From the sequence record PZ583739.1: a stretch of 64,000 nucleotides of DNA; one strand, written 5' to 3'. A program made the position numbers and the translations under genes. Positions 23,603 to 24,277 of the stretch are shown one piece after another; within the stretch, counting starts at the first letter, position 1; every line of letters begins with the position of its first letter. The notes beneath the pieces are model-generated. The model did no database searches, had not been told where the DNA came from, and worked only from the letters and a program-made list of their open reading frames with translations. Origin of the DNA: a phage.

Positions 23603-24277
23603 TTATTTTATTAATGTGTTAAGTCTTAGCTTAGTCATAAACGGATAACGTTCCAACATTGGCTTTACCCAGTATCGAGGATGCAATTCCTTTTTATATG
23701 CTAGGACCAACTCTCGAGCTTGCTCGATGGTATCAACTCCGAAGTTTTTGCACATTTCTTGCCTATCTTTTTCCCACCGGCGCTTTCTCAATTCATCCTG
23801 AATCTCTTTATTTTTAAAATGTCCATTATTGCGAGAATGTTTTGTACCCTTGGTTGGACTGTAATGTCTTCCTTTGACAAACCCATCCGGAACATCTTCC
23901 CATGGAAATAGTTTTATCGATTTTACACCATTATTAAAGTAAACTTTACCGGTTTGGCTTTTAGAAATATTGTCAGCGTGTCTGCGTCTTAACCAGCCAA
24001 ATAATTTATTATTGCGTTTCAAATACTTGCTTGACTGGCTCATAGATGTGGCAGCAAAACTTAAACCTGGATTTGTAGGATATATTTTAACCAATAGTTG
24101 ATGGGCTACATAATGTTCTTCGGGAGTCAAATCGACTAAGTTATCCGGAGCATTTGAACCACCCATACATTTCGGAATGATGTGATGAGATTCTTTATAT
24201 GAAATCAGGACCCTGTTACGGGCCCTTTCAATTAACGATGAATATATAAACTGATAATTCAAAGTGAATTTCTCCAT
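23603..24277 (-). CDS. HNH homing endonuclease (freestanding)
   Basis: [29 protein letters not shown] is an HNH motif; inserted between genes 3 and 2. Confidence 0.7.

Follow-up and report, generated by a model that had tools for sequence, protein, structure and literature searches.

Free-standing endonuclease genes of the Mob and Seg types are the classic variable cargo of T4-like phage genomes. Phage homing endonucleases are described as modular in design, and the endonuclease genes of T4 are reported to be expressed at middle or late times and in a restrained manner (PMC2988022). In the model for MobE and MobA, a conserved gene flanking the endonuclease gene is nicked, and inheritance in mixed infection occurs at high frequency; SegF and SegG cut inside the flanking gene, away from their own insertion sites, and co-convert flanking markers (PMC2988022). 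The activity and target of a further member, MobB, are listed as not determined in the 2010 review of T4 mobile elements, in which the gene 2/3 locus is unmentioned (PMC2988022). No dedicated study of RB32ORF146c, of VR7ORF161c or of a gene 2/3 endonuclease was found in the literature.

Here we describe such a gene in a 64,000-nucleotide stretch of phage DNA (record PZ583739.1; hereinafter the window). The window represents a Gaprivervirus-like member of Tevenvirinae. Over positions 22000-26300, its best matches are Shigella phage fPSFA (97.9%, over the full length) and Escherichia phage RZ (99.0%, without 659 bp). The gene order on the minus strand is 4 > ORF242 > 2 > HNH > 3 > 1 > 57A (Table 1). 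The initial annotation had placed a 224-aa ORF at 23603-24277, between genes 3 and 2, in a block said to be uninterrupted in T4. The ORF listing agrees and assigns the ORF to the minus strand, genes 2 and 3 lie on either side of it, and in T4 no other gene interrupts the run 57B-57A-1-3-2, whose genes 3 and 2 are 106 bp apart. In the window the block is interrupted twice, by the HNH gene and by the 242-aa ORF between genes 4 and 2. The latter appears as a second, nuclease-like insert. Gene 2 and gene 3 are both complete, the true start of gene 3 being ATG 23517 (a length of 600 nt in the annotations of RZ, VR20, and VR25), so the HNH gene is free-standing on the same strand and interrupts no host gene.

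Two details of the ORF differ from the first description. The stop of the ORF had been said to overlap the start region of gene 2; because the ORF and its neighbours are on the minus strand, the relation is reversed, and it is the 5' end of the ORF that overlaps the gene 2 stop. The ORF as first drawn is also five codons longer than the gene, reaching ATG 24277 within gene 2. Specifically, this ATG and the following four codons are gene 2 sequence, which insert-free phages have as well. T4 MobB, T4 MobC, RB32ORF146c, and all database homologues start with MNY at the position of residue 6 of the 224-aa ORF, and an identical 219-aa protein is recorded in databases (P0001). For these reasons, the gene likely starts at TTG 24262 and encodes a product of 219 aa.

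Table 1. Positions of genes, signals, and sequence features around the gene 2/3 junction of the window
Feature	Position	Strand	Remarks
T4-type late promoter box TATAAATA	26292-26299	-	upstream of gene 4; pattern search
Gene 4	25811-26263	-	head completion; Pfam TnsA-like N-terminal domain; phrog_218
ORF242	25083-25811	-	242-aa ORF at gene 4/2 junction
Gene 2 (gp2, DNA end protector)	24259-25095 (24259-25086 in the checked coordinates)	-	phrog_429, 1.8e-78
Substitution island in gene 2	24286-24340	-	55 nt, 22-76 bp upstream of insertion point
GGAG, Shine-Dalgarno-like	24272-24275	-	9 nt upstream of TTG; within gene 2; in empty alleles too
659-bp insert relative to empty alleles	23606-24264 (1 nt boundary ambiguity)	-	alignment with RZ, VR20, VR25
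Putative HNH homing-endonuclease gene	23603-24262	-	219 aa and stop, from likely TTG start
Codons of catalytic H-N-H motif	24101-24187	-	H26, H27, N41, H50, H54 (219-aa numbering)
C-terminal 85 residues	23606-23860	-	predicted four-helix module, locus-specific
Ancestral gene 2 stop and conserved spacer motif TAATCTATT(A/G)TC	23594-23605	-	now endonuclease stop
Gene 3 (tail completion and sheath stabilizer)	22918-23517	-	phrog_45, Pfam Phage_T4_gp19
Gene 1 (dNMP kinase)	22244-22921	-	gene run in window

Comparison with related phages, as had been proposed, defines the insert to the base. Empty-site alleles are common, so the result named beforehand as counting against a mobile gene, an ortholog at this site in every relative, did not arise: exactly 659 bp is missing from RZ, the flanks of which are 99% identical, and from VR20, VR26, and PSD2001. 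Phage TH44 is likewise insert-free. Among the ten genomes compared for gap size, the insert is present in VR25, VR7, P479, UPEC07, and fPSFA, with a length of 659 bp in fPSFA, UPEC07, P479, and VR25 and of 656 bp in VR7, whose cassette has 86% DNA identity to that of the window. Genomes differing by presence or absence of the 659 bp have flanks that are 95-99% identical, and for annotation purposes the cassette accounts for the differences in the gene 4-2-3 region among near-identical Gapriverviruses. The G+C content of the insert is 37.2%, compared with 39-41% for the flanks.

The junctions reveal how the cassette is docked. With a slash marking the boundary, the empty junction reads ...AATTCA/TAATCTATT, and the occupied junction reads ...AATTCA/CTTTGA...AATAAAA/TAATCTATT. 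Over a longer stretch, the empty form (RZ, VR20) is ...AGTATGGAGAAATTCA/TAATCTATTATCGG..., and the occupied form (window, VR25) is ...AGTATGGAGAAATTCA/CTTTGAATTATCAG...ACATTAATAAAA/TAATCTATT.... Through the insertion, gene 2 is lengthened by a single Leu codon and closes with a new TGA (24259-24261); this stop and the TTG of the endonuclease gene overlap as TTGA. At the other end, the ancestral gene 2 TAA serves as the stop of the endonuclease gene. In several lineages, empty alleles have the spacer motif directly 3' of gene 2; in occupied alleles it lies directly 3' of the endonuclease gene, and the 85-bp spacer before gene 3 is unaltered by the insertion.

The same arrangement is found elsewhere. 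Alignment of the VR25, VR7, P479, and RB32 junctions places the start of the gene at the stop codon of gene 2. T4, which is empty, reads ...AATATC/TAATTCTATTATC, and RB32, which is occupied, reads ...GGAGCAATGTACGATGA...ATAAAT/TAATTCTATTATC, with the insertion point common to both; at the position equivalent to the GGAG of the window, RB32 has GGAG where T4 has GGTC. An equivalent junction design is present in QL01/LQ5, in Kosakonia phage 305 (K305), and in three metagenomic phages (L131-L133).

Occupancy is patchy, and the location is constant. Of 38 records of close relatives, with DNA identity of 90% or more, about 9 have the HNH gene. On a wider scale, a gp2 homologue is encoded in 1,508 phage records, 76 of which (~5%) contain the C-terminal module, one per record. 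Full-length homologues adjoin gp2 in all 60 listed records, at three of three IMG/VR loci (one of them in a distant phage at 44% identity), and on eight of eight contigs in assembly look-ups, down to 48% identity. In every neighbourhood checked, across several genera, the gene is placed directly after gene 2. The nuclease domain alone behaves differently, as none of 77 IMG/VR loci that carry it adjoins gp2. Thus, the nuclease domain is generic and the C-terminal module is tied to one locus, as predicted for a target-specificity domain. One protein that seemed to be a full-length homologue away from gene 2 (P0005, 68% identity) was ruled out, because its gene has the usual gp2-HNH-gp3 order. 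Ancestral presence followed by many precise losses was likewise ruled out, on the grounds of the ~5% occupancy and of empty sites that are base-identical across genera.

The HNH cassette assorts independently of the ORF242 and 215-aa inserts, with all combinations seen. The window and fPSFA contain both ORF242 at the gene 4/2 junction and the HNH gene at the gene 2/3 junction, while RZ contains ORF242 only. VR25 and VR7 have the HNH gene and no insert near gene 4, and VR20 and VR26 have neither. A 215-aa endonuclease gene occupies the gene 4/2 junction in P479, together with the HNH gene, and in PSD2001, without it. In UPEC07, an HNH gene is located upstream of gene 4, in addition to the one at the gene 2/3 junction.

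The HNH motif recognized in the initial annotation aligns with the HNH cores of McrA and pyocin AP41, and residue by residue with those of a group II maturase and Cas8-HNH. Its residues H26, H27, N41, H50, and H54 are unchanged across 44 homologues. The match to the McrA HNH core has an E value of 0.18 with the single sequence and of 0.0066 with a profile built from the 44 homologues. Pfam and NCBIfam scans of the window protein gave nothing above threshold: PF01844 (HNH) scored 16.3 bits against a curated cut-off of 21.4 (E 0.011), and PF14279 scored 15.8 bits against 27.5. PF01844 matches 24 of the 44 family members at E<0.01, and these Pfam HNH scores are to be read in light of the shortness of the models and the divergence of the Mob clade. 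Because the Pfam HNH scores are sub-threshold, we based the family assignment on PHROG 655 'homing endonuclease' (2e-56) and on T4 MobB, which is 48% identical over the first 107 aa (4e-29). T4 MobC is 38% identical (1e-16). Neither T4 protein has the C-terminal half in common with the window protein. RB32ORF146c is 60% identical over the full length (223 aa).

The AlphaFold model of the window protein (pLDDT 90, pTM 0.58) contains a predicted beta-beta-alpha unit at residues 24-60, a helical segment at residues 65-103, and two beta hairpins at residues 107-128. A low-confidence linker (~130-150) connects this portion to a four-helix C-terminal module (152-218). Fold searches returned no significant match, and I-HmuI is not among the structural matches. 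About 2,600 database proteins have the N-terminal ~130 residues in common with the window protein, and many of them bear other C-terminal modules, namely NUMOD3, I-HmuI NUMOD-like, or I-TevI DNA-binding modules. The C-terminal module of the window protein is presumed to be a DNA-binding or target-specificity domain. Every copy looked at has the full length (214-225 aa) and retains its catalytic residues. The dN/dS of the HNH gene is 0.04 compared with VR25, 0.11 compared with VR7, and 0.22 compared with RB32, and therefore indicates purifying selection on a maintained protein.

A pattern search for the T4-type late promoter box gave 20 matches in the window, compared with 5.2 expected. The box upstream of gene 4 is the sole late box on the minus strand between 26299 and 22455, and thus is the probable source of a late polycistronic transcript 4-ORF242-2-HNH-3-1. 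This box, the TTGA overlap, and the weak TTG together suggest that translation of the HNH gene is late, low-level, and coupled to gene 2, in keeping with what is reported for the expression of endonuclease genes in T4 (PMC2988022). On the antisense strand, a middle-promoter-like site lies at 23531-23556. A hairpin that pairs the GGAG with the upstream UUUUCUUC is weakly predicted (z = -2.2) and is present in empty alleles too. A scan for sigma-70 promoters gave 15 sites against 12.7 expected, no better than chance. A 'terminator' at 24207-24226 was dismissed since it lies within coding sequence.

Gene 2 itself differs near the cassette. Over the 3'-terminal 830 nt of gene 2, the window and VR20 differ at 28 positions, 15 of which fall within the 55 nt of a substitution island (binomial 3e-10, for an interval chosen post hoc). 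The differences in the island are nearly all synonymous. Within the island are the codons for Q-Q-F-F (24310-24321), part of the conserved gp2 motif PLQQFM, which is encoded 43-54 bp before the stop codon. Gaprivervirus alleles fall into two haplotypes, A (RZ) and B (VR20, SP18), that do not differ over the 21 nt separating the island from the cassette. On the downstream side of the insertion, no occupancy-linked haplotype was observed among the sequences aligned. A comparison of T4 and RB32 also reveals a patch at the equivalent gene 2 codons.

Across a wider set of alleles, the motif varies with occupancy. The 22 empty alleles encode QQFM (18), QQFV (3), or QQFF (1), and the 22 occupied alleles encode QSFQ (7), QQFF (5), QQFV (4), QQFM (2), QAFY, QSFY, QAFH, or QNFQ. 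The motif is non-canonical in 20/22 occupied alleles compared with 4/22 empty alleles (Fisher p = 2e-6, with shared ancestry ignored). Matched pairs display the same difference. Specifically, occupied KaAlpha has QSFQ and the empty phages of its type (L022, L023, and L025) have QQFM; occupied L131 has QSFQ and empty L009-L011 have QQFM; occupied RB32 has QSFY and empty T4 has QQFV. There are exceptions in both directions. ZX13 and L133 are occupied and have the canonical QQFM, ZX13 being nearly identical in DNA sequence to the empty phages of its type, while RZ and L016 are empty and have an occupied-type patch. These four exceptions mean that the patch is neither a necessary nor a sufficient marker of occupancy, and that it could be a hitch-hiking co-conversion tract. 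The patch is a candidate homing footprint, being either the recognition or cleavage site (or part of it), of which carriers would have immune versions, or a co-conversion tract.

The initial annotation had called the gene a likely mobile homing endonuclease gene, and the empty alleles, the homology to Mob proteins, and the purifying selection all favor that proposal. On this sequence evidence, we consider it probable, at roughly 80%, that the window gene is a free-standing, non-intron homing endonuclease gene of the T4 Mob type that homes via the gene 2/3 junction. Its product combines an N-terminal HNH domain of about 105 aa with a beta-hairpin region, a flexible linker, and a C-terminal four-helix module. 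The 659-bp cassette is docked exactly at the gene 2 stop and probably borrows the GGAG within gene 2 as its ribosome-binding site. Late transcription would place the gene on one message with genes 4, 2, and 3, and its translation would be sparse and coupled to that of gene 2. When a related phage without the insert infects the same cell, the enzyme would nick or cut the gene 2/3 junction of that phage, the likeliest position being the stretch that encodes PLQQFM (43-54 bp before the stop codon) or its vicinity. Recombinational repair would then copy the cassette and the adjoining gene 2 patch from the carrier genome. Protection of the carrier itself may stem from the altered patch, from the 659 bp that part the half-sites, or from both.

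The target could be placed differently. An active enzyme might recognize a site that spans the insertion point and comprises the last gene 2 codons and the TAATCTATTATC spacer motif; the cassette would then split the site and confer immunity, as is the case with intron-encoded enzymes, and the patch would be only a co-conversion tract. Such a site is consistent with an insertion point that is base-identical in several genera, with the conservation of TAATCTATTATC beside it in empty and occupied alleles alike, and with the occupied QQFM alleles (ZX13, L133) and patch-bearing empty alleles (RZ, L016). However, the Gaprivervirus patch is an island, separated from the cassette by 21 nt that do not differ between the haplotypes. 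Moreover, the same two gp2 residues, near-invariant in empty alleles, are repeatedly replaced by non-synonymous changes across genera, a recurrence that resembles target selection more than neutral hitch-hiking. We therefore regard a junction-spanning site as possible but on balance unlikely.

Two further explanations differ in what they assume about the enzyme. It is improbable that the gene is a relic, inactive or in decay, that has ceased to home and whose patchiness reflects past invasions and ordinary recombination among co-infecting T4-like phages. T4 does have defunct endonuclease genes, e.g. mobA and I-TevIII (PMC2988022), and the TTG start codon is weak, but the copies examined retain full length and catalytic residues, dN/dS is 0.04-0.22, and fidelity to the locus extends across genera down to 44-48% identity. 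Even less credible, and in our judgement very improbable, is a domesticated gene useful to the phage, e.g. as a partner of gp2 at DNA ends or in the exclusion of competitors, instead of a purely selfish element. Strict linkage to gene 2 wherever the gene is found and purifying selection would fit such a role, and accessory roles have lately been assigned to phage homing endonucleases, e.g. SegB (PMC13096335). However, the gene occurs in only about 5% of gp2-encoding phage records (76/1,508) and is missing from near-identical viable phages (RZ, VR20, SP18, and T4), and linkage to one flanking gene is what is predicted for a homing endonuclease with its target in that gene.

A homing endonuclease gene at this position is real but ordinary, the element being already annotated there in RB32, VR7, VR25, and others. 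Only the base-precise docking design and the recurrent changes of the gp2 motif go beyond routine annotation. What is new is a candidate target for an uncharacterised Mob subgroup, namely the PLQQFM patch or the stop-codon/spacer junction. If the patch is the target, the locus offers a compact natural system for the co-evolution of a homing endonuclease and its target across phage genera. We tentatively suggest, as a possibility about which we have considerable doubt, that the endonuclease family and the near-invariant PLQQFM of the essential gp2 are engaged in a target-site arms race. Each lineage would come with a distinct 'immunity' form of the motif, changed at the amino-acid level (QSFQ, QSFY, QAFY, QAFH, QNFQ, QQFF, or QQFV), and stop-codon-precise docking would have evolved in which host-gene sequence is reused as ribosome-binding site and stop. 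If so, a selfish nuclease would drive amino-acid change in a conserved structural protein.

Among known systems, the window gene differs from the terminase-associated HNH packaging factors of HK97-like phages. These are described as small HNH proteins encoded beside the terminase genes and present in all members of the group. The window gene, in contrast, lies between head and tail completion genes and is missing from about 95% of gp2-encoding records. I-HmuI of Bacillus phage SPO1 is likewise an HNH nuclease with modular DNA-binding units, and some distant relatives of the window protein carry its NUMOD-like or NUMOD3 modules; domain scans of the window protein itself gave no NUMOD or HNH_3 match. 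Unlike the window gene, which is not in an intron, I-HmuI is an intron-encoded nicking enzyme. The altered gene 2 patch of the window resembles the co-conversion by SegF and SegG, although these T4 enzymes have a GIY-YIG catalytic fold and no homology to the window protein.

T4 MobE and MobA, the Mob enzymes that have been characterised, belong to the same architecture class and, by analogy, may serve as the mechanistic model for the window gene, although their targets are nrdB and gene 39. Like the window protein, T4 MobB and MobC have a homologous N-terminal HNH domain, a MNY start, and a length of about 210-260 aa, and their genes are free-standing in the orientation of their neighbours. 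The C-terminal half is unrelated, and the locations differ, as MobB is flanked by a-gt and a-gt.2, and MobC by nrdG and nrdD. The closest counterparts are RB32ORF146c, VR7ORF161c, and VR25_162. GenBank labels read 'putative mobile endonuclease' or 'site-specific intron-like DNA endonuclease', and the RB32ORF146c record states 'similar to mobB; not conserved from T4 position'. With protein identities to the window of 99.6% (P479), 99.1% (VR25), and 87.6% (VR7), these are the same gene in the same place, from which the window copy differs by few substitutions.

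ORF242 matches the 'endonuclease' family phrog_681 (E 2.5e-29), with a sub-threshold match to the DUF4379 treble-clef zinc-finger domain. Among related phages, it is present in RZ and fPSFA and absent from VR20, VR25, and VR7. The ancestral 3' end of gene 4 survives as the last 15 nt of ORF242 (GGATGGAAAGGATGA), which encode GWKG* and contain the ATGA that overlaps gene 2. Because ORF242 thus ends in the ancestral gene 4 terminus and its ATGA, it shares its docking design with the HNH cassette, the homing-endonuclease gene inserted at the gene 2 stop codon. Both insertions follow one design, namely docking at a gene end with the coupling signals kept.

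The gene 4 next to ORF242 is a divergent allele. Specifically, from about codon 6 onward it shares only ~75% DNA identity and 77-79% protein identity with gene 4 of VR20 and VR25. Identity is complete on both flanks, in the promoter region upstream and in gene 2 downstream. Gene 4 of RZ, which carries ORF242, is 100% identical to that of the window. ORF242 and the entire gene 4 allele seem to have been exchanged as one.

Features in and around the gene 4/2/3 block of the window and in related phages
Feature	Coordinates	Strand	Location and remarks
Five small ORFs in tandem (74, 84, 80, 90, 110 aa)	20033-21492	-	
MotA-dependent middle-promoter-like site (TGCTTTA, spacer, TATAAT)	23531-23556	+	spacer upstream of gene 3
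ORF242 (242 aa)	25083-25811	-	between genes 4 and 2; second insertion in the gene block of the HNH cassette
MotA-box-like site (TGCTTTAAAGTATGGTATAACTT)	25325-25347	-	within ORF242, coding strand; pattern match only
Gene 4 divergent stretch	about 25812-26250	-	from about codon 6 to gene end
P479 homing endonuclease (215 aa)	L041:3184-3831		4/2 junction; phrog_314
PSD2001 homing endonuclease (215 aa)	L044:2525-3172		4/2 junction; phrog_314
UPEC07 HNH gene (235 aa)	L043:4811-5518		between genes 53 and 4; phrog_655

Different endonuclease genes lie around genes 53, 4, and 2 in related phages, and this neighbourhood is a hotspot for them. An additional 229-aa ORF is located upstream of gene 4 in a metagenomic phage (L131). 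In alleles lacking the HNH cassette, the very position where the endonuclease gene inserts shows signs of instability on a small scale: an IMG/VR contig (3300045988_081160; L015:3320-3360) carries a short tandem duplication, TAATCTTCT TAATCTTCT TAATCTATTATC, immediately 3' of the gene 2 stop and before the spacer motif, and the corresponding sequence in L009, L012, and L013 is TAATAATCTATTATC.

The N-termini of all five small ORFs are near-identical (MKTYQEFI..., MKTFNEFF..., MNIKTYNEFL...), and their counterparts in UPEC07 are annotated as internal head proteins. The five ORFs probably encode internal head proteins with a common capsid-targeting leader.

The MotA-box-like pattern of the site within ORF242 has 7 matches in the window versus 2.4 expected; this putative box could place gene 2 and the HNH gene under middle-mode transcription. 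Transcription from the plus-strand site upstream of gene 3 would run antisense to the endonuclease gene in occupied alleles and to gene 2 in empty ones, and the site could be the promoter of an 'anti-late' RNA. The site is conserved in T4 (L004:4469-4494, plus strand), and its presence may explain the conservation of the gene 3 upstream spacer.
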